Source: a virus
Reading direction: 5' to 3' (one strand)
IMG/VR virus record: IMGVR_UViG_3300020049_013145
DNA: 42,406 nt
The translations under genes and the position numbers were made by a program. Within the stretch, counting starts at the first letter, position 1; the number at the start of each line of letters is the position of its first letter. The notes beneath the pieces were generated by a model. The model searched no databases. It saw nothing but the letters and a program-made list of their open reading frames with translations, and had not been told where the DNA came from. This document shows, piece by piece, positions 1,165-42,406 of the stretch.

Positions 1165-1436
1165 ATACAGTCTATGTCTACAGAGTCTATCGTCACAAGA
1201 AGTTCATAGGAACGTATACGTCTATGGGCAGGATAACCAGAAAATCGATCAGCACTCTGCTCTCTCCTACTGTTTTTAAACAAGAGTACGGAAGAAAGTA
1301 CGAAGAGATTAATATCCCTATAAAGCTAATACCAACTGACGATGGCATCTTTACAGGATGGGAAAGAGTTTTAGACTTATCAAAGAAGAGCGATAGGCAG
1401 ATTTCTGAACTTAAAAAATGGGGAATTATTAAATGA
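1161..1436 (+). CDS. Hypothetical protein (91 aa)
   Basis: ORF track. ATGA overlap with the upstream gene. Confidence 0.65.
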   Translation: MNTVYVYRVYRHKKFIGTYTSMGRITRKSISTLLSPTVFKQEYGRKYEEINIPIKLIPTDDGIFTGWERVLDLSKKSDRQISELKKWGIIK

Positions 1437-1522
1437 AATACGTAGAGGGTCTTTTGTTTGGCTCAGGATTCATGACTGCGGTTGTAATATTTAAAGTTTT
1501 GTTTCATGTTACGGCTTGTTGA
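1433..1522 (+). CDS. Possible 29-aa hydrophobic mini-protein (MKYVEGLLFGSGFMTAVVIFKVLFHVTAC)
   Basis: Below the ORF-track size cutoff. The ATG overlaps the upstream stop (ATGA), and a single hydrophobic helix is predicted by eye. Confidence 0.35.
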   Translation: MKYVEGLLFGSGFMTAVVIFKVLFHVTAC

Positions 1523-2076
1523 AATTTAGATGTCCCTACAGGGCGCGAAGCCAAAGTAATTTGGCATAGCAAGGTCGATGGCGCTTAGACCCTGGAGCGA
1601 TCCATCCCCCGGCTGGGCGGGAGAACAATCGAGTGGTCTGACTCATTGGGACCCAGTTAAAAGGCAGCACTCAAGAGCTTTAGATCGGTAATCTAGTGAG
1701 CCCGATCTATGAACTTGAGCGCGGTTAACCGATGCGAGATTCGGTATATTTTTAAATTTGCGGCGGCGTGGAAGGACACGTCTAACACCGACTAACTATA
1801 GGGCCTCCGTCATCCACACTATCTTGAGCTGAGTGGAGCGGGTTTTGGTGATGAGAATCTCAAGAATTCTCAATGAATGGCCTAAGCAGGTACTCAAGCC
1901 CTGCCCGCAAAAAACTAATGGATATCAATGTTAGTAGTTCGGCCTAATATTAGGCCTTGTTAGGTATTAGTTCTAATATGGGTGGACATGGTAGCTAGCC
2001 TGAAGTCCAGTCCTGGCACATCCCGGATATACGTTAGGGTAAAGGTCCGGCAGAGGAAGCGCTAGTCCACCCGCCC
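1523..2076. ncRNA. Candidate large structured noncoding RNA (strand undetermined). Could instead be a packaging or terminal-repeat region.
   Basis: No ORF of 60 aa or more on any frame across ~550 nt of a gene-dense genome. Many perfect helices are visible:
- GCCAAA-GTAA-TTTGGC (1550-1565)
- nested CTCAAG/CTTGAG (1670-1675/1714-1719) around TAGATCGG/CCGATCTA (1681-1688/1702-1709)
- ACCGA/TCGGT (1728-1745)
- CGTG/CACG (1767-1780)
- TCTTGAG/CTCAAGA (1822-1828/1859-1865)
- GGCCTAATATTAGGCC (1941-1956)
- GGGTGGAC/GTCCACCC (1980-1987/2065-2072) enclosing CCGGA/TCCGG (2023-2027/2046-2050). Confidence 0.4.
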
Positions 2077-2598
2077 ATTAAACTTATCACGAGCCTCTTG
2101 CTGCTTATGAAATTCAGCGACCTTTTTCTCTATTCTCTTCACTCTCTGGCAGATAGTTGACTCAGTCACATTTAGCTTTTTTCCAATTTCTCGCTTTTTC
2201 ATGCCTTCGAAATAAAATAATTCAATCAACTCAAGCTGCGTTGTGTTCAATCTTTTTTTAAACAGGTTCAACATCAAGGCAGAGTCTAATAATACGTCGG
2301 CACCCAAAGCAGGGCTTTCATGTGAATCGAGAGGCCCCTTATCAAGGCTTAAGCCATAGGCATCAATCACTCTACCCATCTGTCTTTTTCCAGTATTATT
2401 CTCCCCCCATATAAGACGCATTGAATCGATTAAGGCGTAGGAGATGAACTTCTTTGTGCGCGGCATTTTGCTCATGAATAGATTGAGCGCAGTCTCTTGA
2501 ATGAGATCTTCTGTGCGCTCCTTTACAAAGTCAGGCGCTCGGTAGAGAATCTTTCGACACATCTTTGCTATGTCTTTGTATTCTTCAGCGTAGTCCAT
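2062..2598 (-). CDS. Sigma-70 family (ECF-like) RNA polymerase sigma factor
   Basis: Region-2-like EDLIQETALNLFMS and region-4 HTH QLELIELFYFEGMKKREIGKKLNVTESTICQRVKRIEKKV. Start set at the internal ATG 2598 (MDYAEEYKD, AAGG 3 nt upstream), because the longer ORF to 2709 would overlap the divergent lipoprotein gene. Confidence 0.8.
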   Translation of the reverse strand: MDYAEEYKDIAKMCRKILYRAPDFVKERTEDLIQETALNLFMSKMPRTKKFISYALIDSMRLIWGENNTGKRQMGRVIDAYGLSLDKGPLDSHESPALGADVLLDSALMLNLFKKRLNTTQLELIELFYFEGMKKREIGKKLNVTESTICQRVKRIEKKVAEFHKQQEARDKFNGRVD

Positions 2599-2640: not shown

Positions 2641-2841
2641 ATGAAAATATTGATAGCACTTTCCACACTTCTCTTGTCTGCATGCGCGACTACACAATAC
2701 AAAGGGCACCCAGAGTGTGCGCCTTCACCAAGTCTTTGCTGGCATGACTTTAGAGACCCAGTGACTGATAAGTTTTGTACGACAAAATCAGTCGACCGTG
2801 TGGATGAACATGAGATCAGAATGGAGTTCTTTTGTCAGTGA
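2641..2841 (+). CDS. Small lipoprotein (66 aa)
   Basis: Signal peptide with lipobox (MKILIALSTLLLSAC). AGAGGA lies upstream of the ATG. Four further Cys residues. Confidence 0.7.
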   Translation: MKILIALSTLLLSACATTQYKGHPECAPSPSLCWHDFRDPVTDKFCTTKSVDRVDEHEIRMEFFCQ

Positions 2842-2913
2842 GCGTGCTTGACAGTCTCTTCTCTCAAAGATAGCCAGAGAGAAATACGCAACACTTTAAA
2901 CAAAGGATCACAG

Positions 2914-3228
2914 ATGAATACAACTCCTACAACTGAGACTGGCACGGCAAAAAGTTCCACGTGGAACGACGCATTGCCCAACACTACTACTGAAGGCGCA
3001 ACCAAGTGGGCACTCGAGACCTTCACATCAAAGCCTTTGAACGAATGGCAAACCAATCAGATTAATAACCTAAGGCAACAAACCGCTTGGCTTTGGGATA
3101 CGATCGACAACATTACCGACCGTACAAAAGAAACAACTACTCCAGAAGTGGCAAGACTCACCTCTCTTGCTAAGACCAATCTTGAACAAGCTTTCATGTG
3201 GGCGACCAAAGCGATCAGCCGCAAGTAG
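2914..3228 (+). CDS. Hypothetical Thr-rich protein (104 aa)
   Basis: ATG 2914 is preceded by AAAGGA. The ORF track extends to a TTG at 2848, which I consider less likely. Confidence 0.6.
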   Translation: MNTTPTTETGTAKSSTWNDALPNTTTEGATKWALETFTSKPLNEWQTNQINNLRQQTAWLWDTIDNITDRTKETTTPEVARLTSLAKTNLEQAFMWATKAISRK

Positions 3229-3244
3229 TCTCTCGCCTGAAATA

Positions 3245-3296
3245 CTCCAGTCCTTAGATTTTACTATCGCGCTGATACTAGGTTTAGGGACTGGAG
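3245..3296. other. Inverted repeat, 9-bp perfect stem (CTCCAGTCC / GGACTGGAG) with a 34-nt loop
   Basis: Read directly. It lies in the intergenic gap after the stop at 3228. There is no U-tract, so it is not called a terminator. Confidence 0.4.
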
Positions 3297-3340
3297 AACT
3301 CTCCTAGTCATCCCCTCATTCTTTCTGTAACCTTTAAAAC

Positions 3341-3538
3341 ATGAAGGCCTCCAAGACCATTCACGACATAAGCGAACCACAGTGGGATGAGATAAAGAAG
3401 CTGTGCAATGAGCTAAGGCTTGGTGGTGAGTTTGGCGGCGACATAGCAAAGTGCATGGTCTATGCTTTCGTGATATGGGTCAGCACATCCAAGGTTGAGG
3501 TTGCAATTGAAGTGGCCGACTATCAAAACCTGCATTAA
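3341..3538 (+). CDS. Hypothetical protein (65 aa)
   Basis: ORF track. No convincing SD. Confidence 0.5.
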   Translation: MKASKTIHDISEPQWDEIKKLCNELRLGGEFGGDIAKCMVYAFVIWVSTSKVEVAIEVADYQNLH

Positions 3539-4380: not shown

Positions 4381-4705
4381 CACGAGCCTTCTTAAATTCT
4401 TCAGACTCCACCCCTTTTGTGTGAGCAATGAGCTTTAGTTTGAGTTGGGCCTCATCAAAAGCTGCTCTGTGGATTGGATCAATAAACCGAATATAGGACA
4501 CATCGATCGATACAATAATCTTATCAAAGAGCCACTCAGACCCTTTGTTGACTAGGCTCTCAAAGACCGTACTTAGGATTGGCCAATTGAGAAAGGGAAG
4601 TGTGGTCCTGGCTGTAGCCTTGAACCACTTAATGCCTATGTCCCATACGATCTCTTTAAAGATCTTTTGGATATCGGTTAATGTTTTGTTTACTGATTCT
4701 GACAT
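4337..4705 (-). CDS. Hypothetical lysis-cassette protein (122 aa)
   Basis: ORF track. Sits between the TM proteins and the lipoprotein. Charged helical C-terminus. Confidence 0.65.
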   Translation of the reverse strand: MSESVNKTLTDIQKIFKEIVWDIGIKWFKATARTTLPFLNWPILSTVFESLVNKGSEWLFDKIIVSIDVSYIRFIDPIHRAAFDEAQLKLKLIAHTKGVESEEFKKARDEAKSRLSTFIRTA

Positions 4706-4739
4706 AGAGAGAAGAGGGCGACTTGCGCCGCCCCCTACA

Positions 4740-5051
4740 TTAAGCCTGTTTCAATGCAGCTTTGAGCACTGCACCTAATGCATCGTCGATCTTGTTGTCG
4801 GTTGCGGCAACGAGCTTCTCGACAAGCATATCAATATCGACTTTGAGTTCGTTCATCACTGCGCCATCAACAGCAGCAACAGAAAGCACAAGCTTGCCTT
4901 CTGCTACTTTAACGTCGAGTTTAAATCCAGCGCCTAGTTCAATGTCTTTCTTTTCCATTTTCTTTCCCCTATTCATAAGCAAGATGAACAATGTCAATCC
5001 CGCGGTTATCAACTCAAGCATAGAGTTGGTGTGTGTGTGTTGCCCTTCCAT
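4740..5051 (-). CDS. Membrane protein with an N-terminal TM helix (holin, antiholin or i-spanin-like candidate)
   Basis: ATG 5051 is preceded by AAGGGG. The TM segment is LELITAGLTLFILLM. A second in-frame ATG with its own GGGGAAAG lies 32 codons downstream of ATG 5051, so dual starts are possible. Confidence 0.6.
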   Translation of the reverse strand: MEGQHTHTNSMLELITAGLTLFILLMNRGKKMEKKDIELGAGFKLDVKVAEGKLVLSVAAVDGAVMNELKVDIDMLVEKLVAATDNKIDDALGAVLKAALKQA

Positions 5052-7243: not shown

Positions 7244-10200
7244 TCATTGAGAAGATCCTGGTTTTCCAGTTATTAGGCCACGCGTAAAATCAACTGGCCC
7301 ACTAGGATCTGCTTTTCCTTCCGACACATCAGACAGGTAACCAATTGGTCTGGCAAGAGGTGAGAGCGGAAGCCCTGTTGCAAGACTTAATGCGGTGAGT
7401 AGATCTCGTGCCGCCTTCTTCTTACTCCCGTCTTCAACGATTGCATTGTAGACAGAGCTCGGTGCTTTGACCGCACTCTCAATCATCGAGACCGCTGGTG
7501 AGGTTGAGATTCGATCGTCATACCATTTGTCGTTAAATGAGTTGATGCCAGCTTGCACCGTTGGGCCAACCACTGGGAATAGAGCGGTTGCTGATCTGAA
7601 TTGCCCTAAGAAGAAAGTTGACATCAAGTCATCTAAGTACTCGTCGTCATCGTCACTATCTAAGGATCCGCTCATGCTTCGAACAATGAGCTCGCCAACA
7701 ACTGCTGGGACCATAAAGCCAAACGTATAGAGGTAGAGCGCACGCCCTGCGCCCTTCTTTAAACCCATGTCGCGTGCAACCTTAATGAACTCAGTGCCAA
7801 GAAGGTTTGCCTGCATATTGAAGTAGGAATAGAACTGTGTGAATGCACGAACAAATGGAGTGCCTGTCTCAAAGCGAGACACGTCTTCAGGACTTAAAGA
7901 TCCTTGAGTCTGCCTCACAGTTGAGTCCGCCTCTTTTACAGCTTCCTTCTCAGTCTCCCCATTCTCTACAGCCTGATCATATGCTCCTGACCACACAACC
8001 GTATCGATCAGATTCTGAGACGCAGTCTGCAAAAAGTATCCATGCTTCTTTCCAAAGTCTCTGGCCTTCTCGTACTTCGTTGGATTAAGCAGTAGTTCGT
8101 CAATCGTTTGATTGATCTCAGAGGCTGAAGCATCCATTCTATTTCGCATGAACTCAGACTTGTCTTTCACGTCATCTGAGTACTTCTTTGGCGCTTTCAT
8201 ATATGACCAAAGAGAGTCTCTTAAGTATTTAGGTTTGACCTTTGTCGCTGCAATCGACAGACCTGTGACGTTTTGAAGCGTGTTCACCACGTTTGCCGTC
8301 ATGACTGCTAATCCAGTCCTGGCTCTAATCTCTTTAAAGAAAGTATCTAGCGCACGTCCTCCCCACCCATTTGATGGAGTAGAGATCTTCTGCTGAGCTG
8401 CACGCTGAAGCCATGGCACAAGCATATCACCGCCAACAGTTGGGTCAAAGGCATCGAGCGTTCGTCTAAAGCCACGGTCCATCACAAGCCTTGCCACTTC
8501 TTTTACGTGTGGTTCGATCTCTGAGAACCTAAGAACCTTATCAAGCTGCATTGGCACAAGCTTTAGATCCATCACAAGAGGCGCGGCATAGGCGTCCACC
8601 CGAGACTTCGTGAATCCACGACCTGCAGTTGGAAACATAAAGCTATTGTTTGATTTCTCAATAGACTCTTTCTCGTTTCTAATTGCTGCGTCTTGAGAAA
8701 GAAACGAGTCAACAGTGGCTGGTGCGTATCCGCCACGGTAGTTACCAAACGGCGTCTTTACCTCTTGGGCCGTGACCTCGTTAAAGTATCTGCCATACAT
8801 CTGCTTATGTGCTTTTTGGGCAGCGGGCTTTGTCTCTTCAAATAGATCCCAAAGCCCTTGAAGAACGTCATAGTCCTTCTTCGTCAGCACACCTTCGTTC
8901 CACATGCGGGTAACAAAGGCATCCCAGCGAGCGGTATTCAATGCGCCAGTTGAGTCAATCTCTCCCCACTGTCTTCCACGAAGTAGCTTTGATAGGTTAC
9001 TCTCGTTACCTGTGTGGAGCATTGCACCTAATAGTTCAGCCTTACTTCCAAACTCGTAGTTTAGTTCTGGAGATAGGATCTTCTTAGGGCCAAGGTCTTT
9101 CTCAATGGGCTTGATCACGTCTAGGAACTTCTTAAGATAGCCCTTCTTTACTTCACGAAACCTAGTTGCAGCTTCAGAGATTGGGTTAAAGATAATGTCC
9201 TTAAAGTCATTACTGCTATCGCCATCCATTGCACTGGCCCAGCTCTCAACGCGCCTTAACGAGGCCCTAACACCAAGAAGACCCATCTTTGTCTTATCCC
9301 AGGTTGTTGCTGCCTTATCGTATTTACCCTTCTCTTTGAGCTCTGTGATTTGAGACAAGCGCTCTTCAAGCTTAGCCTTTGCCTCATCTCGGTCCATCAT
9401 CTTGCCATCGACTTCGATCTGCTTTGTAGTACGCGCCAAGCTCCAGATGCTTTCAATCGCATCGCTTAAGTTTACGAAGTCATCGTATGATAATTGATTA
9501 TAATCTGAAGTGGGTTGCGCGTTGCTTACGACAGAGTCAACGATTGCAGACACCGTCTCGTATGTCTCAGGATCATAGCGCTTTATCTGATCAAGGTATT
9601 CGGATACTGGCTTATCTTTCTTGCCAACTCCGTACTCAGCAAGGATTGCACGAGCAGCATTTACAAGATCAATGTCACGAGACTTTGCAATAGCCTCATC
9701 TGCGCGACTAAGCTTCTTCCACTTATCCACCTCAATCTCTACATGCTCTTGCGCTTCTACAGCTGCACGATAGAGTTCGTGGTTTAGAAGCTCTTTTCTC
9801 TTGGCATCAAACGCACCTTCGATATCGCCCTTGGCAAGAAGCTGACCAGCGGTCTTTGCATACTTTGCCTCAGCTCTTTGGAATACATGTGGGCTTAAGT
9901 TCTTTACTTCGCGCCTTGCAATAATGCCACGCGCCTGATCGCGTACAGCCTTCTCGGTCGGCACGCGCCGTGAGACCTTGCGGATAGCGTCTTTGAGTAC
10001 TGGCATATTATTCGATGCCAAGTGCTCAAGCTCAAGTCTTAAGACCTGCGATCGCTTCTCATTGTGAATGGCTTTCATCGTTTCTTCAGGAAGCTTTCCG
10101 TCAGTTAAGAGATCGGGATAGAGTTCGGCCATACGCCTTGTTGCTTCAGCTTCGATGAAATCTTCTTTGGCAGGAGCTGCAGCTAATTGCTGTAGCATTG

Positions 10201-13200
10201 TCTCACCAGAAGAAAACCCAAGTGCGTCAGCTACGATATCTGGATTAAGGCCGCCTTCTTTTTCAGTAGCCACAATCTTCTTAGGAAGTGTTTTAAAGAA
10301 ATCTTTACCAAGCGTGTCTAGTACTGCATCCTTATTGATCTTAAGTTTAGAACCATCGGGAAGTAACTCATCAGATCGCAACCTATCGATTGCCATGTAG
10401 ACCGTGCTATCTTTGATCTCATCTGCAATCTCAAGACGAAGCTTCTGCTTTCGCTCATCCCACCATGGCTTAAGCTCGCGCGTGTAGTCGCTCATGACTT
10501 TCTTTACGACCTGGTCTTCAGCTGCAATTCTTGATTCCTCAATAGCCTTGGCATAGGCCTCAGCCCTTGGACCTGTCATGCCGCTCTTTGCTACGTCGGC
10601 AAACAGTGGATCTGCATTCTGTTGCGCTTTGGCCCTGGCTATCTCTTCATCTGTCGCAAGTAAGCGATCAAAAACACCACGAACTTCAGGCGAGAGCTCA
10701 ACATTAAGAGACGTCAATCGCTTATAGATCGAGACAAGCCAAACCTTAAACCTTGAGAAAGCCTTACGAAGACCTTCACTCGGTGCCTTACCTTCCATGA
10801 GATACGCTTCAAAGCTTCTTGCAAACTGCTCATGCTGCTCGACAGAGAACTTGCCATCAGTCTGTCCACCAAGTGTCTGAACAATTGTGTCGTAGTCATC
10901 TTTGATCTGCTGAGGAGCGTTCTCTCTTTTGGCAAGGTCACCCAAGATCTCTAAATAGAAGTGACCTGTCTCATGCAGGAAGGTTGACTTATCAGCGCCC
11001 TCAAGTAAGTCGATCCTGAAGTTACGGCCATTGATCGTGATCTGCCCACGTGGAGCATTACTGTCATCTCTTTGAAATAGGGAGAACCCTTCGTTTAACG
11101 CAGCTTCTTTTAGTTGAGGCGTCAGCTCTAGAGAGTGAACCTTATTTGTTACCCGATCACTCTGCGAGGAAAACTCTTTTAACCCTGACTCAGCCTCTTC
11201 CTTAGAAGAGAAGTCGTCTGATATTATTTCTCCATCTTCATCAATAATATTCCAAAGTCCATCTTCGTTTTCTTCAACGCTATACTCAGATCCTGCCTTT
11301 TCAGATAAGCTTGAGGACTCAACCTTAGCGCCGTACTTCTTTCCAAACTTATTGGCATAGTCGACAAGGATCTTATCGTAGAATCCTTTCATGCCTTCTC
11401 CGCCAACCTTTAGGTCAACTCCTGAGAACTTCTTAGCCTTGCCCTTGGTGTAGTTTGAAGAGAGGATCTTCTCTGACAAGTCCTTCCCAAGCACATCTGG
11501 AAGCTTATCTGCAGATACAGATGTCTCATGAGAGACTGGGTTACTGTCTTTTACGGCGCGAACATTGTAGGTGCCGTCTTCATTTTTTGCAACAAACACA
11601 GCGTCAACTTGATGGCTAAGATCATACCGATCAGCCTGTTGTTCACCAGTGGTCCAAGCAACGCTGTCATAGCCCTTCTCAGCTGCTTCACGAATCAAGC
11701 GCTTTAGAACGAACTCATGCCAGGTCTTCCTGAATGGAGCGTCTGGGACAGATCCTTGACCTGCTTTTAATGTCACTCTATTAAAATCAGCAAGTGCTTC
11801 TTCTTTTGTTGTGGCAAATCCGGCAATCCTACCTTGTTTATCTCTGACCTTCCAAGTGCTGTGATCTGGTCCTTCTGGATCATGTTGAAGCCAATACCCA
11901 TCTGGAAGATTGTCCTCTGTTACTGGAGCTACATCTTCTTTGTATCCCTTCTTTCTTCCAGCTTGATGCCAGTCTGACTGGATCTCTTCAACAAACAAAA
12001 CCTTCTTGCCATCGGAATCTATGCGGTCATTGAGCCTTGTGTGCGCGAGCACGTTAGCTTCGTCGAAGTGGGAGGATTGGTAGGTTTCAGATTTATCAAA
12101 CTTATTTGCCTTCTCCCAGGCCTTGCCCTGTTCTATCTCAAGAGCTTCAATTTCTTTGCGGACCTTTAATGGTCGGTCTTTGATCGTAGGGTATTCTTTT
12201 CGAATCTCTTTTAGTCGATCGTCAATTTCTTGTATCCGGCTTTTAGCTTCAGCCACATCAGTCGGCTCTTGTGCAGGCAAAGTAAACAGAACCTCTCGGT
12301 AGTTCTCTCCGCCTGGTAACGTGTACTGCGCAAACTTGGTTGTGCCTGACTTATTTTGTTTAAGCTCTTCAAACAGAGAGGATCTCTCGGCTTCCCAAGC
12401 GGCATCTCTTTCTCTATCTGGGACGGCATCTATTGCATCAATTTTACTTTGGATGTCATCTGATCCTGAGAACTCAGCCTTCGTGACTTCCTGGATCTCA
12501 AGCGCATTGGCGCGAAGAAAGTCTAGTAGGTCCTGCTTTGAGACCTTTTCTTTACCTTTTAAGAACTCATCAATGCCCGACCACTTCATCTCCTCAGGCT
12601 TGATGTCCCGGAGCATACCTTTAATCTGCTCAGGCGAAGCGGATCCACCCATCTTTTGCTCAACGGTTTGCTGGAGTTTAGAGTAAAAGGCTGGAGCTTG
12701 GCCACTAGAGCCATCCTGAAAGTAACGAAATCGAGACCTTAGCTCATTGACGCGTTGCTCAAAATCAGATACACTGATATTGCCTTCGGGTGAGACAGGG
12801 CCAACTTGTTGCCCAGCAATGGGATTTGAACTCACAGGCCCGCCCGAAGGCTTTCCTTCACCTATGATCTCAACCTTATCCACCTCACCTTGCTTCACAT
12901 CCAAAGACACCATGTAGTCCTGCCCGTTCATTTGAACTGGAGCAAAGAAGACTTGGGTAGGCGGTTCACCTGGTCTGATCGATGGGCGGTCAAAGACGTA
13001 GACTGCGTTACGTGCGATCTGTGGGAGCCCACTTGCTACACGTACGAAGTTCTCAAATAGGGCTGGGGCTTTCTTCTTATTGCGATACTGGGCACGGTCA
13101 AATAAAGCACCAGCTCGGTCAACAATCTTATCAGCTGTGTTCTTCGTAAGTCTAATCTCTTGGCCTGTGTGCGTGTTGGTAAACGTGCCTGCACCAAACG

Positions 13201-15217
13201 CACCTTTGGCAAGAGCTGCCTTTAGGCTTGTCGGATGCTGGACCTTACTCTTGACCATTGCACCTGACTCAAAGCTTGAGATGGGGACATTCTGTGGGAG
13301 AGGAGCTGTGGTTTGCCGAATCTCAGAGTTCTTTGCTTCAATGCCTTGAGACACGGCTGACTGATTTAGTGTCTGCCCATCAGTCTCTGTATCTCCGTTA
13401 CCAATCTTAAGACCAAACTGATTAAAAAGGTCAAGTGGGCTAACTCCAGTTCTTTCACCTAAGGACTTGAATGCCGACTCATAAATCTGTGCATAAGTCT
13501 CTGCGCTTTTCGCGTCTTGGCCAGAAGCCTTAAGCTGCTCAACTACATTGTCACGAACAACTCTTGCTTGTGTTCCACTATCTTCCACAGCGCCTTCTTC
13601 AGCCGTTGCAGCTTTTGCCTCAGCATCGAGCGCACCTTTTACTTCAGCGCCTTCAGCCTTTGCCTCATTGACTGATAAACTTGTTGGATCAAACTTAACG
13701 TCATCAGCCAAACCCTGATAGTACTCCGTGCCCACAACCTTCTCAACCCAGGTGGAGAGCGGAATCTTTATATCAGTGCCAGTCTCTTTAGACTCAGTGT
13801 ACGCATCGAGTGTGCCGATGTCTTGCATCGCCTTAGTCGGGTTTATCTTCTTTGACTGGAAGTATGTATCGATTGCCTCTGTTGAGATGTAGAGATTCTC
13901 AACTGGTGAGTCCTTTGTGATGTTCTCAACGTACTGCCTTTGAGCTTCAGGCAACCTCTCTCTGAGCTTTGATGCCGCCGCTGTATTGCCAAGCGAGAGA
14001 TAGAAATCACGAGTGAGTGTCGAGTTCCTGATCTTAGCACCACGAGATAAACCAGCACCAATGGCACTAGGTGCAGTCATTGCTCCGCCAGATGCTCCAC
14101 CAATAATAAAAGAATCGAGCGCTCGCTGTCCTATGCCTTCAAGTGCATCAGGGTTTACGCCTGTAATGTAATCAGTAAGGTCTTGTGCAACAGAGGTTAG
14201 GGCTTCTTCGTTTGCCTCACCTGCGCCTGTGTAGAGAAGTGTTTTGGCAAAGTCCTTAAAGACTTCAGTTGAGACTTGCTTTCCATACTCTTTGGCAATC
14301 GCATTCTCCCAACTCTTAAGTAGACCGAATGTTCCAAGGCTTTCAAACGAGGATTCAATTGCACCCTTAGATACAGCGTTGAGCGTGCCAGTGAGTGGGT
14401 CAACTCCTGCCTCACGGTTATCTTGGTTAGAAGAGGAAGCAGTTGTAACGCCAGCACCTACTAGTGCAGGAACACCAAAGCCAAGTAACGTGCCTGCAAT
14501 GATTGCTGCCTGCTGAGGCGCATTTGCTGCAAACTGAGCGGCAAGCGTCATTCCTGCGCGCTTATAGTTTCCTTGGGATATCTCATTTGTAATGCTTCGG
14601 TCCATCTCAGGAGTTTTAAAGGCTTCAGCTGCGCGGTCATAATACTTTGCCACAGGGTTATTGATTGCCCAGTCAGGGGACTTAACCATGAGATCAGAAC
14701 GACCAGCGGCCTTTGCCACAAGGTTCTGAGGCACAGCTGCTACGTCATAGGCAAGTGCTGGCACACGGGCCACACTCCCATACATAGAGGCAAGCCCTGA
14801 GTTTAAAGAGGAGTACATCATGGAGAGCATCGAGTGGTCTTGAACCGCACGTTCAGTCTCTCTTAGGTTACCTATGTCATCTCTTGCAACACCTGCATTA
14901 TTCGTATCTTCTAACCAGCCAGCAGTCTTAGGCGACTTCTCAATCAACTCATCATAGTCTGTGCTCGTGCCAGGTTGTGCTTGAGACAACGTATCGTAGT
15001 TTCGCTCAACAATGGATGAGGGAAGGTTCATCTTCTTTGATATCTCAAGAACCTTTGCCTGACGATCTGGCTCTACCTTTTCAGCAACGAACATCGATTG
15101 CTTAAGGGCTGACTTCTTTACACTCAAGTCATCGGCTACCATGGTGTCGTACTCGTTAGCCTTAACTACAGGCGCACCTTCGGCTAGCATGTCATCGTAT
15201 TCATTTATCGGTGCCAT
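7244..15217 (-). CDS. Giant (2,657 aa) virion-internal / ejection-type polyvalent protein with a zincin-like HExxH motif
   Basis: Uninterrupted 7,974-nt ORF in the position of T7 gp16. HETGH is encoded at 10961-10975. Hydrophobic segments lie near both termini (e.g. IIAGTLLGFGVPALVGAGV, LYLYTFGFMVPAVVGELIV). Confidence 0.85.
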   Translation of the reverse strand: MAPINEYDDMLAEGAPVVKANEYDTMVADDLSVKKSALKQSMFVAEKVEPDRQAKVLEISKKMNLPSSIVERNYDTLSQAQPGTSTDYDELIEKSPKTAGWLEDTNNAGVARDDIGNLRETERAVQDHSMLSMMYSSLNSGLASMYGSVARVPALAYDVAAVPQNLVAKAAGRSDLMVKSPDWAINNPVAKYYDRAAEAFKTPEMDRSITNEISQGNYKRAGMTLAAQFAANAPQQAAIIAGTLLGFGVPALVGAGVTTASSSNQDNREAGVDPLTGTLNAVSKGAIESSFESLGTFGLLKSWENAIAKEYGKQVSTEVFKDFAKTLLYTGAGEANEEALTSVAQDLTDYITGVNPDALEGIGQRALDSFIIGGASGGAMTAPSAIGAGLSRGAKIRNSTLTRDFYLSLGNTAAASKLRERLPEAQRQYVENITKDSPVENLYISTEAIDTYFQSKKINPTKAMQDIGTLDAYTESKETGTDIKIPLSTWVEKVVGTEYYQGLADDVKFDPTSLSVNEAKAEGAEVKGALDAEAKAATAEEGAVEDSGTQARVVRDNVVEQLKASGQDAKSAETYAQIYESAFKSLGERTGVSPLDLFNQFGLKIGNGDTETDGQTLNQSAVSQGIEAKNSEIRQTTAPLPQNVPISSFESGAMVKSKVQHPTSLKAALAKGAFGAGTFTNTHTGQEIRLTKNTADKIVDRAGALFDRAQYRNKKKAPALFENFVRVASGLPQIARNAVYVFDRPSIRPGEPPTQVFFAPVQMNGQDYMVSLDVKQGEVDKVEIIGEGKPSGGPVSSNPIAGQQVGPVSPEGNISVSDFEQRVNELRSRFRYFQDGSSGQAPAFYSKLQQTVEQKMGGSASPEQIKGMLRDIKPEEMKWSGIDEFLKGKEKVSKQDLLDFLRANALEIQEVTKAEFSGSDDIQSKIDAIDAVPDRERDAAWEAERSSLFEELKQNKSGTTKFAQYTLPGGENYREVLFTLPAQEPTDVAEAKSRIQEIDDRLKEIRKEYPTIKDRPLKVRKEIEALEIEQGKAWEKANKFDKSETYQSSHFDEANVLAHTRLNDRIDSDGKKVLFVEEIQSDWHQAGRKKGYKEDVAPVTEDNLPDGYWLQHDPEGPDHSTWKVRDKQGRIAGFATTKEEALADFNRVTLKAGQGSVPDAPFRKTWHEFVLKRLIREAAEKGYDSVAWTTGEQQADRYDLSHQVDAVFVAKNEDGTYNVRAVKDSNPVSHETSVSADKLPDVLGKDLSEKILSSNYTKGKAKKFSGVDLKVGGEGMKGFYDKILVDYANKFGKKYGAKVESSSLSEKAGSEYSVEENEDGLWNIIDEDGEIISDDFSSKEEAESGLKEFSSQSDRVTNKVHSLELTPQLKEAALNEGFSLFQRDDSNAPRGQITINGRNFRIDLLEGADKSTFLHETGHFYLEILGDLAKRENAPQQIKDDYDTIVQTLGGQTDGKFSVEQHEQFARSFEAYLMEGKAPSEGLRKAFSRFKVWLVSIYKRLTSLNVELSPEVRGVFDRLLATDEEIARAKAQQNADPLFADVAKSGMTGPRAEAYAKAIEESRIAAEDQVVKKVMSDYTRELKPWWDERKQKLRLEIADEIKDSTVYMAIDRLRSDELLPDGSKLKINKDAVLDTLGKDFFKTLPKKIVATEKEGGLNPDIVADALGFSSGETMLQQLAAAPAKEDFIEAEATRRMAELYPDLLTDGKLPEETMKAIHNEKRSQVLRLELEHLASNNMPVLKDAIRKVSRRVPTEKAVRDQARGIIARREVKNLSPHVFQRAEAKYAKTAGQLLAKGDIEGAFDAKRKELLNHELYRAAVEAQEHVEIEVDKWKKLSRADEAIAKSRDIDLVNAARAILAEYGVGKKDKPVSEYLDQIKRYDPETYETVSAIVDSVVSNAQPTSDYNQLSYDDFVNLSDAIESIWSLARTTKQIEVDGKMMDRDEAKAKLEERLSQITELKEKGKYDKAATTWDKTKMGLLGVRASLRRVESWASAMDGDSSNDFKDIIFNPISEAATRFREVKKGYLKKFLDVIKPIEKDLGPKKILSPELNYEFGSKAELLGAMLHTGNESNLSKLLRGRQWGEIDSTGALNTARWDAFVTRMWNEGVLTKKDYDVLQGLWDLFEETKPAAQKAHKQMYGRYFNEVTAQEVKTPFGNYRGGYAPATVDSFLSQDAAIRNEKESIEKSNNSFMFPTAGRGFTKSRVDAYAAPLVMDLKLVPMQLDKVLRFSEIEPHVKEVARLVMDRGFRRTLDAFDPTVGGDMLVPWLQRAAQQKISTPSNGWGGRALDTFFKEIRARTGLAVMTANVVNTLQNVTGLSIAATKVKPKYLRDSLWSYMKAPKKYSDDVKDKSEFMRNRMDASASEINQTIDELLLNPTKYEKARDFGKKHGYFLQTASQNLIDTVVWSGAYDQAVENGETEKEAVKEADSTVRQTQGSLSPEDVSRFETGTPFVRAFTQFYSYFNMQANLLGTEFIKVARDMGLKKGAGRALYLYTFGFMVPAVVGELIVRSMSGSLDSDDDDEYLDDLMSTFFLGQFRSATALFPVVGPTVQAGINSFNDKWYDDRISTSPAVSMIESAVKAPSSVYNAIVEDGSKKKAARDLLTALSLATGLPLSPLARPIGYLSDVSEGKADPSGPVDFTRGLITGKPGSSQ

Positions 15218-15232
15218 AGACCTACCCTTGCC

Positions 15233-16948
15233 TTAGTACTGATCACTTGTGACCATCTTTTGAATTTTTCGATTATATAGATCTGAGATGGCCTTATCCG
15301 TAACCGGCCTATTATTCTTCCTAAGCGCTTCTTCGATCTTAATCCTGTCACCGCGTGGAACGTCTTTGGCTGAGACTTCGATCGTCTCACCAGAGGTAAG
15401 TTGGTAGGCTGACTTCTTCGTATCCCACAACCATCCCTTTGAAGTAACGCCCTTTACAATAAGGTTATCGACAATGGCCTGCATCTCTTCATTGGTTGCC
15501 TTGCGTCCTAGCTTCTCTTGCAATGCACGTTGCTGGTCATCAGCCTGGCGTCTAAAGAGGGCAACATTCTTTGCATCGTTTGATCCAGCCTTTGGAGTGG
15601 GGTCAACGCCTGCAGCAAGAAGGGTATCATTTACAATCTGCGCGTCACCCCTAAACCCATCAAGAGTCTTAAGAGAACTAGGATCGTTTGAACGCATGCC
15701 AGCCTGAAGCTCAATCAATTGATGAGTCTCTTGCTTGGTCATCTTTGCCATGAATTGTCGTATATCAGTTTGAAGGAACCGCTCTTTAGTCTGAGGGGTT
15801 GAAGCCATGGTGCGTAGGTTATAATACTCCTCACCATTGGGCTCGGCTTCAATGCCTTTCTTTAACTGCTCAATCCTATTGTCAATGGCGTTGCGCTGGC
15901 CAAGATTTAGGTTGGCCCAGATCACAGCGTTAGGACGCTCCTGGGTCTGCTCAGCAATGTCAGCTGCCTGATTAAAATACTTCTCTTCACTCTGGCGTTC
16001 AGCGGCACTGGCATCAGAGGCCATCTGCCTTAGCCTGTGCTCTGTTGCTTCACGAACTTTTGGATCTTCAATCTTCTTTGCAGAACCAAGCGCTACCTTT
16101 AAATCTCCACCAGACTGAAGCCAAAATGCATCTCCCTTACGCTGAGACTCGCCACGGATAGACCCCTCTTCAACCGCCTTCTCAAGCTGAACCACATCCT
16201 GAGAGGTCATCTGATCTTTCGTACTGTCAAAGTAGTTCTTAGCCGCAAGGTCTTGTCCGTTGGCAAGCATGCGCTCAACGATTGTGGATTGAGTTTTGGA
16301 TGACGCTTCGGCAAGCTGCATCTTCACAACTTCAGGAGGCAGTCCATTTCTCTGAGCATTGTCGATGATAAGTGCACGTTGGTCGGCAAGACTTCGGTCA
16401 ACAGAGCCTGGCTTTTGATAGTTCAAAACCCCATCTTCACGAGCCGCTGCAACCCCACTCTTAAAAGTCTGTTCTTCAAACTGACGGGATTCAGCAAAGA
16501 CATGGCGCTGAAGTGATTCGTTTAGATCATTTTCTTGAGAGAGTCTGATCTTTTTAAACATCGCACGCTGTGTGTCGTTTGCAAGGCTTGCCTCTACATC
16601 GTCATTAAACTTTTGATACTTACCCCCGTACTCATCAACCGTGCCAAAAGAGTCCTTACCCTTCTTCATGGCCGCACCAGGATCGTTCTGGTCGGTGTCG
16701 TACATGAGTCTATTCTTTTCTCTAATCGTCTTGGCGTAGGCCTCTTGTGTTGCAGTGTCGTCAGCCTTTTGCTTTTCCTGCATGGCAAGATCTACGGCAA
16801 CACGACCAACCTGCTCAGTGGCCTGAGAGACTTGAGCTGCAGACTGTCCTCCACCAAAGGCCTCAAGTGGTGCATCTACACTTACTCTTGCGTTAGGTAA
16901 CCCCTGTAAACCTACTCTTTGATCGCCATATCTAGGAACTGTAGGCAC
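15233..16948 (-). CDS. Internal virion (core/ejection) protein candidate (571 aa)
   Basis: Synteny only (gp15-like slot between the small core protein and the giant protein). Charged, helical, Q/A/E-rich. Confidence 0.7.
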   Translation of the reverse strand: MPTVPRYGDQRVGLQGLPNARVSVDAPLEAFGGGQSAAQVSQATEQVGRVAVDLAMQEKQKADDTATQEAYAKTIREKNRLMYDTDQNDPGAAMKKGKDSFGTVDEYGGKYQKFNDDVEASLANDTQRAMFKKIRLSQENDLNESLQRHVFAESRQFEEQTFKSGVAAAREDGVLNYQKPGSVDRSLADQRALIIDNAQRNGLPPEVVKMQLAEASSKTQSTIVERMLANGQDLAAKNYFDSTKDQMTSQDVVQLEKAVEEGSIRGESQRKGDAFWLQSGGDLKVALGSAKKIEDPKVREATEHRLRQMASDASAAERQSEEKYFNQAADIAEQTQERPNAVIWANLNLGQRNAIDNRIEQLKKGIEAEPNGEEYYNLRTMASTPQTKERFLQTDIRQFMAKMTKQETHQLIELQAGMRSNDPSSLKTLDGFRGDAQIVNDTLLAAGVDPTPKAGSNDAKNVALFRRQADDQQRALQEKLGRKATNEEMQAIVDNLIVKGVTSKGWLWDTKKSAYQLTSGETIEVSAKDVPRGDRIKIEEALRKNNRPVTDKAISDLYNRKIQKMVTSDQY

Positions 16949-21340: not shown

Positions 21341-21359
21341 TTGATCCCCCAATGAGAAC

Positions 21360-21388
21360 GGGGGCCAGAAAAGTTATCCCTGGCCCCC
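21360..21388 (-). terminator. Strong stem-loop (GGGGGCCAG-11 nt-CTGGCCCCC), possibly an attenuator or RNA-stability element
   Basis: Perfect 9-bp GC-rich stem in the 42-nt gap after the capsid-proximal genes. There is no clean U-tract, and the RBS of the next gene follows directly. Confidence 0.4.
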
Positions 21389-21394
21389 AGATAC

Positions 21395-34780: not shown

Positions 34781-34867
34781 TCGAGCGGCGGGATTCGAAC
34801 CAGCGCCCTCTTCGGTGAACATTTCTTATTCATGATCGAAGCGCTCTGACCTCTGAGCTACGCCCAC
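34780..34867 (-). tRNA. tRNA-like gene, anticodon CAU (Met or Ile2), with a 15-nt insertion at position 37/38
   Basis: The reverse complement parses as GTGGGCG-TA-GCTC-AGAGGTCA-GAGC-G-CTTCG-ATCATG[AATAAGAAATGTTCA]C-CGAAG-AGGGC-GCTGG-TTCGAAT-CCCGC-CGCTCGA-C. That is 88 nt, or 73 nt without the insert. It has a canonical GTTCGAATC T-loop and a GG in the D-loop. The acceptor stem has a 1:72 mismatch and two G-U pairs. No CCA is encoded. Confidence 0.6.
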
Positions 34868-37517: not shown

Positions 37518-37723
37518 GCAAGTCTAAATACGTAAGATTAAAAGACCTAAAGAAGCTGATGGAGCAATATCCAGATGCTATTTTATCTTACCCAGTAGAT
37601 CAAAGTAAATTTGAGTACAGTGACCGATTAGCTGGTGAGTTTAGTGATGAACTTGTAGAAATGCATCCAGATAACGTTGGTCCGGGTAATCCAAAATACC
37701 GCCATATTGTGAGGCTCAAATGA
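37514..37723 (+). CDS. Hypothetical protein (69 aa)
   Basis: GTGAGCAAGTCT start. Same junction as 202-453, but the interior is unrelated. Confidence 0.6.
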   Translation: MSKSKYVRLKDLKKLMEQYPDAILSYPVDQSKFEYSDRLAGEFSDELVEMHPDNVGPGNPKYRHIVRLK

Positions 37724-38052
37724 AAACCCCTAAAGAGCTGGCGCAAGAGGTGTTGGATCTTCGATCGAGGGCTGATCAGTATGACGTCGACTCGTATGAG
37801 TGGGACGATCTTATGCAAGCCTCAGAGGATATCCTTTTAAACGATGGGGATACCCTCGCCCGCGCCGTGCTGAAGCTTGAGGAGGAGCGTGAACAGCATT
37901 ACAGGGCTCACTCGGAAGCCGTGGATCTAATATTGAAACTCACAGATGAGAAAACGATCATGGTGTCATCACTAAATAAAATTGCCGGGTACATGGGAGA
38001 TGACGCGCAAGATGAAGCCGAAAAAGCCCTCTCCAAAATAGGTGGAAAATGA
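37720..38052 (+). CDS. Hypothetical protein, MKTPKELAQEV family (110 aa)
   Basis: Shares the 5' 37 nt with 450-710 (2 mismatches) and the LKLEEE segment. Ends ALSKIGGK*. Confidence 0.65.
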   Translation: MKTPKELAQEVLDLRSRADQYDVDSYEWDDLMQASEDILLNDGDTLARAVLKLEEEREQHYRAHSEAVDLILKLTDEKTIMVSSLNKIAGYMGDDAQDEAEKALSKIGGK

Positions 38053-38195
38053 CTCACATTTTTAAACGCGGCTCCGTAACTATCGAACTACTATGTCATC
38101 CAACTATGGATCGATATTTTGAATGGATTAATAATGCGTACGTGCGCGGTCCTTCGTATGAGCAATTGATTCTAGATGGGTGGGCTAAGCAATGA
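38049..38195 (+). CDS. Possible 48-aa protein
   Basis: Below the ORF-track cutoff. ATGA overlaps at both ends keep the coupling chain intact. Confidence 0.4.
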   Translation: MTHIFKRGSVTIELLCHPTMDRYFEWINNAYVRGPSYEQLILDGWAKQ

Positions 38196-38236
38196 AATCC
38201 CCTAGAGAGTTGGCGCAAGAGGTGCAGCATGAGTAA
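38192..38236 (+). pseudogene. Truncated 14-codon remnant of the MKSP[KR]ELAQEV gene start
   Basis: atgaaatcccctagagagttggcgcaagaggtg matches 450-482 with 3 mismatches, then stops (TAA 38234-38236), overlapping the ATG at 38229. Confidence 0.55.
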
Positions 38237-38555
38237 CGAATTTAAAGCCATATGGCTACACGCAGATGCGCGTTTAATTGGCAAAACAGCGGATAGCCTA
38301 AGGACACTTCTAGCTGCGCTTACTCAGTCTGGGATAGACACTGCACACGTTACAGTGACTTGTCCTGATGTCCAAGAATTAGAAAAACGAGTGCTGAAGC
38401 TTGAGGAGGAGAAAGAAATTCTCATTGAAGCGATCACTAAAGTAAACCGCACCGAGATAACTCATGGTTGCGAGGAATGCTCATCCATCTGGACAAACGT
38501 CTACGAGTTCCCTCCTCTTGCGGAAGCCCTATCCAAAGTGACGGGGCAGAAATGA
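38229..38555 (+). CDS. Hypothetical protein (108 aa), C-terminal paralog of 450-710
   Basis: The C-terminal half is LKLEEEKEILIEAITKVNRTEITHGCEECSSIWTNVYEFPPLAEALSKVTGQK. Confidence 0.7.
   Translation: MSNEFKAIWLHADARLIGKTADSLRTLLAALTQSGIDTAHVTVTCPDVQELEKRVLKLEEEKEILIEAITKVNRTEITHGCEECSSIWTNVYEFPPLAEALSKVTGQK
38393..38555 (+). repeat. Dispersed direct repeat, 163 bp (partner 548-710)
   Basis: 142/163 identical by hand alignment. Confidence 0.85.
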
Positions 38556-38971
38556 GAACAACACCACACAATTGTGGCGGTATTGGTTGCGATACTTGCG
38601 CCAGTGATCGGGTATTCAATCAGCAGTCAAAGCAAGTGGACGAGGACACCTTCACTTACCCACGTAGCGCAATAGACGCACGAATAGTAGAAGTTGAAAC
38701 GCTACGCGCCGAGCGAGACAAATGGAAATGGGAATACGAAAACCTTTGCCATTTCGCCTGGCATCTCGCCAATGATTTTGAAGAGCAAGTGGTTGAGTTG
38801 AAAAAAGAGAAGGCGGTGTTGGTTGAGTTGAAAAAAGAGAAGGCGGTGTTGGTTGAGGCAATAGAATACATCAGCCATGATTGCATGCATTCTCATGCAA
38901 ACTGTCCAACTAGAGCCGCAATGCAAGTAATAGCAAAGAAAGCACTCTCCAAAGTGACGGGGGAGAAATGA
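38552..38971 (+). CDS. Hypothetical Cys/His-rich protein (139 aa), same family tail (ALSKVTGEK)
   Basis: Start at ATG 38552 (ATGA overlap). Contains CGGIGCDTC and HDCMHSHANC. Carries the in-frame 30-bp tandem duplication. Confidence 0.65.
   Translation: MRTTPHNCGGIGCDTCASDRVFNQQSKQVDEDTFTYPRSAIDARIVEVETLRAERDKWKWEYENLCHFAWHLANDFEEQVVELKKEKAVLVELKKEKAVLVEAIEYISHDCMHSHANCPTRAAMQVIAKKALSKVTGEK
38791..38857 (+). repeat. Perfect 30-bp tandem duplication plus 7 nt of a third unit
   Basis: ggttgagttgaaaaaagagaaggcggtgtt occurs at 38791-38820 and again at 38821-38850, followed by ggttgag. It encodes VELKKEKAVL twice. Confidence 0.95.
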
Positions 38972-42104: not shown

Positions 42105-42406
42105 CCAACCTAGAGCGATTATGCAAAGAAGTGCTCGAGGCGAGCGAGAAGGCTACGGAAGCGGGTAAATATTGGACTACTAAATATGGCAATGCAGTTC
42201 AAAGCAAAGAAGAGACAATATGTGTTCTGAATGATGGAGAATATATTGAAAATCCAAATCGCGAATCGGATGCAGCATATATCATCCTCTCAGCCAACAA
42301 CGCACCACTCCTGGCCAAGGCTTTGTTGCGGGCTATGGAATCGCTAAAACGCACCCAGAACCGATTCTTAAATGAGGCACCAACAGGCCTTCCTTTAGAG
42401 TCTAGA
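42101..42406 (+). CDS. Ead/Ea22-like protein, N-terminal part (continues at nt 122 after the junction)
   Basis: ATG 42101 (ATGA overlap). 102 codons run to the window end with no stop. EASEKATEAGKYW parallels EASEKATYGPWQL of 37140-37517. Confidence 0.8.
   Translation, partial: MTNLERLCKEVLEASEKATEAGKYWTTKYGNAVQSKEETICVLNDGEYIENPNRESDAAYIILSANNAPLLAKALLRAMESLKRTQNRFLNEAPTGLPLESR
42286..42406. repeat. Terminal direct repeat, copy 2 (identical to 1-121)
   Basis: Exact 121-nt match read directly. Confidence 0.95.

Follow-up and report, generated by a model that had tools for sequence, protein, structure and literature searches.

Where the early operon of this phage meets a converging sigma-factor gene, the genome holds a real non-coding stretch that is moderately structured, has no relatives in the collections searched and lies outside any known large RNA class. 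This spacer occupies positions 1523-2061 of the window, by which we mean the whole 42,406-nt stretch of DNA that was analysed. We tentatively favour the reading, to which we give somewhat less than an even chance, that it is a non-coding, hairpin-rich and transcribed buffer, probably plus-strand, that ends or protects the two converging transcripts.

A non-coding spacer at a convergent junction

The contig closes on itself: positions 1-121 are repeated exactly at 42286-42406 in a self-blast, and this 121-nt terminal overlap identifies a circularly closed assembly of ~42,285 bp. We scanned every ORF of at least 120 aa that fits the gene map, apart from six in the structural arm (120-167 aa), against Pfam or PHROG. 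The genome encodes a T7-type portal, an epsilon15-type major capsid protein, small and large terminase subunits, a fibre, an NlpC/P60 lysin, an O/RepL-like initiator and an ECF-like sigma factor; no integrase, recombinase, RNA polymerase, reverse transcriptase or RNA-processing enzyme was found among the scanned proteins. The 2657-aa protein of the virion module (7244-15217, minus strand) is a polyvalent protein with LPD22 and LPD3 domains and not an RNA polymerase. The genes fall into two arms, a plus-strand arm from ~32.1 kb round the circle to 1522 and a minus-strand arm from 31.7 kb down to ~3.5 kb. Beyond the minus arm lies a small mosaic zone, in which genes on the plus strand occupy 2641-3538 and the sigma gene occupies 2062-2595 on the minus strand; the spacer is the point at which the plus arm runs into this gene. 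The remaining genome is near-continuously coding, and 4-nt gene overlaps are common.

On the left, the rightward early operon does end at the 5' side of the spacer, as a preliminary description of this DNA had proposed. Its last ORF (1433-1522, plus strand) encodes a 29-aa hydrophobic peptide, has a start ATG that overlaps the stop of the preceding gene (ATGA) and stops at 1520-1522. On the right, the sigma-factor gene (2062-2595, minus strand; stop 2062-2064) is an orphan that converges on the spacer; its 177-aa product matches Pfam Sigma70_r4, Sigma70_r4_2 and Sigma70_ECF, all over cut-off, as well as PHROG sigma-factor families. Elsewhere in the early region, small genes form paralogous families (449-714 and 37719-38971); for example, 547-714 is 87% identical to 38392-38559. 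Self-blast led us to reject a diversity-generating retroelement (DGR) template or repeated genome segment as the nature of the spacer.

The same description had noted an ORF-free stretch in a dense genome, of higher GC content than its surroundings, and both observations hold. The gap without any ORF of at least 60 aa spans 1437-2061 (625 nt) and is the largest in the genome, the runner-up being 404 nt at a divergent junction; because the 29-aa ORF occupies 1433-1522, strictly non-coding sequence begins at 1523 and runs to 2061. Within it, every one of the six frames contains 11-17 stops. Its period-3 signal (0.6) falls below the genome median (4.35), and only 1.4% of windows are that low. A tblastn search of the spacer with the proteins of 30 related loci gave no trace. 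On these three grounds (stops, missing codon periodicity and the blank tblastn search) we rejected a decayed gene. GC content is 0.492, compared with 0.41 in the genes to the left, 0.42 in the sigma gene and 0.35-0.43 in other intergenic regions; measured against all 540-nt windows it lies within 1 SD, and 18% of them are equal or higher. The GC skew is +0.117, similar to that of the plus arm, and the cumulative skew over the whole genome peaks at 2059, beside the sigma gene stop. In composition the spacer continues the plus arm.

Hairpins in the spacer

Every helix that had been listed for this region is present at its coordinates, and most are perfect Watson-Crick pairings on either strand. 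Nearest the operon, at 1550-1565, a 6-bp hairpin (GCCAAA-GUAA-UUUGGC) carries a GNRA-type loop on the plus strand. The strongest structural element is a two-tier hairpin at 1667-1722, which occurs once in the genome. Its outer stem of 9 bp includes one position that is an A-C mismatch when read on the plus strand and pairs as G-U on the minus strand; its inner stem has 8 bp (TAGATCGG/CCGATCTA), and UUAAAA lies at its left flank. Directly beyond it, a weak terminator-like element at 1728-1756 (plus strand) consists of a 5-bp hairpin, ACCGA/UCGGU (1728-1745), followed by AUAUUUUUAAAUUU.

The hexamers CTCAAG and CTTGAG had been reported to occur five times in this region, and we counted the same five sites (1670, 1714, 1823, 1859 and 1893), compared with ~0.9 expected from the genome-wide rate. 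Between 1822 and 1898 they form mutually exclusive helices (1822-1828/1859-1865, 1852-1858/1866-1872 and 1823-1828/1893-1898). Across the genome the two hexamers total 72 sites, twofold the 37 +/- 6.5 in shuffled sequence.

A palindrome cluster follows at 1907-1979. At its centre is a perfect 16-nt palindrome, GGCCTAATATTAGGCC, at 1941-1956, framed by the outer arms AACTAAT/ATTAGTT (1913-1919/1966-1972) and accompanied by a 22-nt direct repeat (1929-1950 and 1958-1979; 73% identical, 29-nt-spaced). On the minus strand the cluster reads as a long hairpin followed by a run of six U (1912-1907), and its basal stem is AU-rich. The 3' domain (1980-2072, plus strand) encloses CCGGAU/GUCCGG and is closed by an 8-bp helix, GGGUGGAC/GUCCACCC, whose 3' arm lies over the last sigma-gene codons. 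The placement of this closing helix at the sigma 3' end, also part of the earlier account, is borne out by a stop codon (2062-2064) directly beside the arm (2065-2072). We also observed a MITE-like pair of ends, 1614-1640/2051-2077, that are 70% complementary; no target duplication is visible in the sequence.

Folding against controls

How far this exceeds chance depends on stem length, and the preliminary claim of dense perfect helices stands in part. Perfect stems of at least 7 bp are in clear excess (7, against 2.3 +/- 1.5 in shuffles), a number reached by 0 of 300 shuffles and by 2.8% of genome windows. Counted from 6 bp upwards, the 14 stems are only modestly over chance (9.2 +/- 2.9 in shuffles), and 7% of shuffles and 13% of genome windows reach 14. 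For the whole region (554 nt) the plus-strand minimum free energy (MFE) had a z-score of -2.8 to -3.5 and the minus-strand MFE one of -3.0; across a background of 72 genome windows the mean was -0.27, the SD 1.04 and the minimum -2.53. The spacer value is the lowest of 74 windows and lies below every background window, which makes the spacer the most stably folding stretch sampled.

Above-chance folding is confined to three patches. The segment 1660-1760, which holds the two-tier hairpin, reaches z -3.9 on the plus strand and -5.0 on the minus strand; 1900-1985 has -2.4 and -2.2, and 1975-2080, with the 3' domain, has -2.0 and -0.7, respectively. The two segments that separate and precede these patches are level with shuffled sequence (1523-1665, z -0.7 on both strands; 1758-1906, +0.1 plus and -1.2 minus). 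They make up 292 of the 539 nt. With about half of its length at the shuffled level, the spacer gives no indication of one ornate 550-nt fold; in the predicted global structure, separate hairpins stand in a row, closed by a helix of only 4 bp. The alternative offered in the preliminary description, a cluster of terminators or small RNAs, fits such patchy hairpins better than does one large RNA.

Isolated hairpins elsewhere in the genome score as well or better, with z -5.1 for 3151-3300 (hairpin 3229-3340, plus strand) and -6.0 for 4601-4750 (minus strand), and a 13-bp GC-rich stem follows the capsid gene at 21359-21389 (minus strand). These three gene-end hairpins are likely the phage's real transcript-end signals, most of them without a U-tract.

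Strand assignment draws on several measures. Local z-scores point to different strands in different patches, and G-U pairs are near equal, with 19 on the plus strand and 16 on the minus strand. Ensemble diversity on the plus strand is 81, compared with 140 +/- 33, a level reached by only 1 of 112 windows, whereas the minus strand is unremarkable. The plus-strand MFE is also below that of all sampled windows. Three weak signs, namely GC skew with its maximum at 2059, the lowest MFE and the well-defined ensemble, point to the plus strand as the sense strand.

These measurements bear on a second explanation, in which the spacer is a non-coding RNA gene that stands alone, or a set of two or three small ones, with the plus strand the likeliest to encode it. 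Such an RNA would have its own function; it might, for example, regulate the neighbouring sigma factor, whose 3' end it would overlap in antisense, or act on the host. We regard this as possible though doubtful. It is kept alive by the length and GC content that set the spacer apart among intergenic regions: it is the longest and most GC-rich in the genome, a classic structured-RNA profile, and as such these two properties count against a mere buffer. The low folding energy and the well-defined plus-strand ensemble also suit a stand-alone RNA, as does the retention of extra DNA in an otherwise very compact genome. Against it stand the half of the spacer that folds at chance level, the patches that favour different strands with their near-even G-U counts, and the lack of a promoter-like site within the spacer.

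One sequence in the spacer resembles a T7 promoter. At 1789-1803 (plus strand), CGACTAACTATAGGG agrees with the core of the T7 RNA polymerase promoter (-12 to +3) at 14 of 15 positions, and the genome has 1 such match at two mismatches or fewer, compared with 0.05 expected. We rejected a T7-type promoter here on the grounds that the match is a single copy, that no phage RNA polymerase gene was found among the scanned proteins and that the site is absent from the relatives; the match is probably due to chance.

Comparison with known RNA families and DNA sites

GOLLD, ROOL, HEARO, raiA and OLE are families held in Rfam. We ran cmscan with Rfam 15 over the whole window at gathering scores and over 1300-2300 at E-values up to 10. 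At gathering scores the only match in the whole window was a tRNA at 34783-34865, with nothing in the spacer, and eight related loci gave nothing relevant. The permissive search of 1300-2300 returned only three snoRNA or lncRNA matches (E 6-9), far under gathering scores. The suggested membership in GOLLD or ROOL therefore fails, and so does membership in HEARO, raiA, OLE, the intron or ribozyme families or any other Rfam family, with nothing relevant matched in the permissive search. Neither a tRNA nor a tmRNA was called by ARAGORN in the window or in six relatives. The blank results from both programs weigh against a stand-alone RNA.

Several specific candidates were rejected on this basis. 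A tRNA or tmRNA was dismissed on the blank ARAGORN result in the window and the lack of an Rfam tRNA or tmRNA match in 1300-2300. Group I and II introns and small self-cleaving ribozymes have no Rfam match here, and the flanking ORFs are complete and uninterrupted: the sigma gene keeps its C-terminal region 4 and the 29-aa ORF has a normal stop. The Rfam tRNA at 34783-34865 (minus strand; 35.4 bits) has an insert of ~20 nt in its anticodon loop, was not called by ARAGORN and could be an intron-bearing or degenerate tRNA.

In GOLLD and ROOL RNAs, covariation supports a complex, conserved fold that includes multistem junctions and pseudoknots. The spacer resembles them in its phage setting, its freedom from ORFs and its high GC content for an intergenic region of this genome, and it is comparable in size, the average length of ROOL being 581 nt (Weinberg et al. 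2017, PMC5737381). It differs in lacking a model match at E up to 10, in having no structure signal over half of its length and in folding as separate hairpins with a 4-bp closure. GOLLD and ROOL are often found next to tRNA genes in prophages (PMC5737381), whereas the spacer has no adjoining tRNA and the nearest tRNA-like gene is ~9 kb away round the circle. We rejected both classes.

A third explanation places the function in the DNA itself. The spacer could be a leftover or alternative recombination site in the slot that holds integrase and attP in relatives, an array of protein-binding sites in the palindrome and repeat cluster (1913-1979), the terminus of replication or an end used in packaging. 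We consider such a site unlikely. The perfect 16-nt palindrome with its flanking inverted and direct repeats would suit it, as would the perfect Watson-Crick pairing of most helices on both strands and the cumulative GC-skew maximum at 2059. Part of its appeal comes from one of the closest relatives, L002, whose giant protein is 60% identical over 1277 aa. At the equivalent junction (14715-16030), L002 carries a tyrosine integrase (Arm-DNA-bind_3 and Phage_integrase) and a fragment resembling the 3' end of a tRNA; the relatives are therefore temperate, and the phage studied has no integrase among its scanned proteins. The L002 module and the spacer share a map slot, after the lysis genes where two arms converge. 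The spacer differs in lacking an integrase gene and a tRNA fragment, and its sequence is not similar to the module.

Further results speak against a DNA-level site. Neither an integrase nor a recombinase is present among the scanned proteins (six structural-arm ORFs of 120-167 aa lie outside that scan), and the spacer contains neither a tRNA-like fragment nor a protein remnant, so that an attP or integration module, which would have an adjacent integrase gene and a core in common with a host tRNA or other attB, was rejected. A Xer/dif site was likewise rejected: the best matches to five dif sequences reach 17-20 of 28 positions, are weak and lie outside the spacer. The palindrome and direct repeats have no second copy in the genome, which led us to discard an operator or iteron with further genome copies. 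The terminase genes, at 27.2-29.5 kb, are 27 kb distant. As the contig self-closes through a 121-nt overlap located elsewhere, the assembly shows no sign of ends at the spacer.

Related phages lack the spacer

A blastn search of phage and plasmid records with the spacer gave no match, and three exact-pattern scans of viral contigs gave nothing. Searches of 5.8 billion proteins with the sigma factor and with the 91-aa left neighbour returned the queries themselves only. There is a record of a 40,774-nt sister contig, whose sigma, NlpC and capsid proteins are identical to those of this phage. We also searched viral, metagenome and genome contigs with five proteins as anchors, namely the sigma factor, left neighbour, endolysin, fibre and giant protein. 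The fibre and giant-protein anchors recovered 30 related loci, in which the giant protein is up to 60-64% identical. None of the 30 contains the spacer or its flanking genes; one, L015, has a weak homologue of the 29-aa ORF. At the equivalent junction in L001 and L015, convergent genes overlap. The spacer is extra, lineage-specific DNA that is lacking in related phages. With no homologue in the collections searched, covariation support is absent, a further point against a stand-alone RNA. That the spacer is an undescribed structured RNA of ~0.5 kb on the plus strand, private to this lineage, lying antisense over the 3' end of the orphan sigma gene and forming a new class without relatives in present databases, strikes us as very unlikely.

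The same comparison gives some substance to a fourth explanation, that the spacer is functionless mosaic DNA, a recombination scar left by the arrival of the orphan sigma module and yet to be purged. Both flanking genes are orphans, at 2-3.5 kb small units alternate between the strands in a patchwork, the relatives have nothing at the equivalent junction, and half of the spacer lacks a structure signal. Random or decayed DNA, however, should fold like shuffled sequence, and the spacer is instead the most stable of 74 windows, with stems of at least 7 bp threefold over-represented. No protein remnant is detectable with the relatives' proteins, and 0.5 kb of DNA without use seldom persists in a phage genome. 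We judge a scar of this kind improbable.

A buffer between converging transcripts

The tentatively preferred reading, a transcribed buffer, draws on position and on the local character of the structure. The spacer lies exactly between the ends of two converging units, and its structure is patchy and carried by a few strong hairpins. The sole terminator-like hairpin with a U-tract in the spacer is on the plus strand and comes right after the strongest hairpin, the minus strand offers a long hairpin followed by six U, the three weak signs of plus-strand sense agree with this reading, and no known RNA family matches.

Under this proposal, transcription of the spacer would come chiefly from the plus-strand operon, whose mRNA it would extend at the 3' end, and, for its right end, from the sigma gene, whose mRNA would have its 3' tail there. 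Plus-strand transcripts may be stopped or paused, and their 3' ends protected, by the two-tier hairpin (1667-1722) acting with the small hairpin and U-tract (1728-1756). For the sigma mRNA, the same role could fall to the helix at 1980-2072 and the palindromic hairpin with its U6 run (1972-1907). Together, these elements would keep converging polymerases from antisense reading of the opposite genes. The spacer would then be a series of local hairpins and not one large ornate RNA.

Some observations sit poorly with a buffer. Both terminator candidates are poor, and in a simple scan terminator-like matches occur at chance frequency genome-wide. A second convergent junction in the same phage (3538/3554) has a spacer of 15 nt, and with the overlapping convergent genes of L001 and L015 this indicates that a 540-nt buffer is needless for convergence as such.

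Known signals at transcript ends offer partial parallels. An intrinsic terminator is a GC-rich hairpin with a U-tract directly after it where a transcription unit ends. Like intrinsic or bidirectional terminators, the spacer lies between converging units; on the plus strand its strong hairpin precedes a small hairpin and a U-tract, an A-rich run stands upstream of the two-tier hairpin, and six U come after the long minus-strand hairpin; unlike those of intrinsic terminators, its stems at the U-tracts are short or AU-rich, and at 540 nt it far exceeds the 40-80 nt of intrinsic and bidirectional terminators. Phage small RNAs derived from 3'-UTRs or operon ends form a general class, which the spacer resembles in following the last ORF of an operon directly and in carrying a hairpin and U-tract ~230 nt downstream of the stop. 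It differs in the lack of a conserved seed or homologue, and in a gap several times the typical length.

If the spacer is only a hairpin-rich buffer, it represents ordinary phage housekeeping, and a long ORF-free gap with several perfect helices is insufficient to call a large ornate RNA. Should it prove to be a true RNA, a phage-encoded sigma factor would have an orphan structured RNA linked to it, which would be of moderate interest for phage gene regulation.
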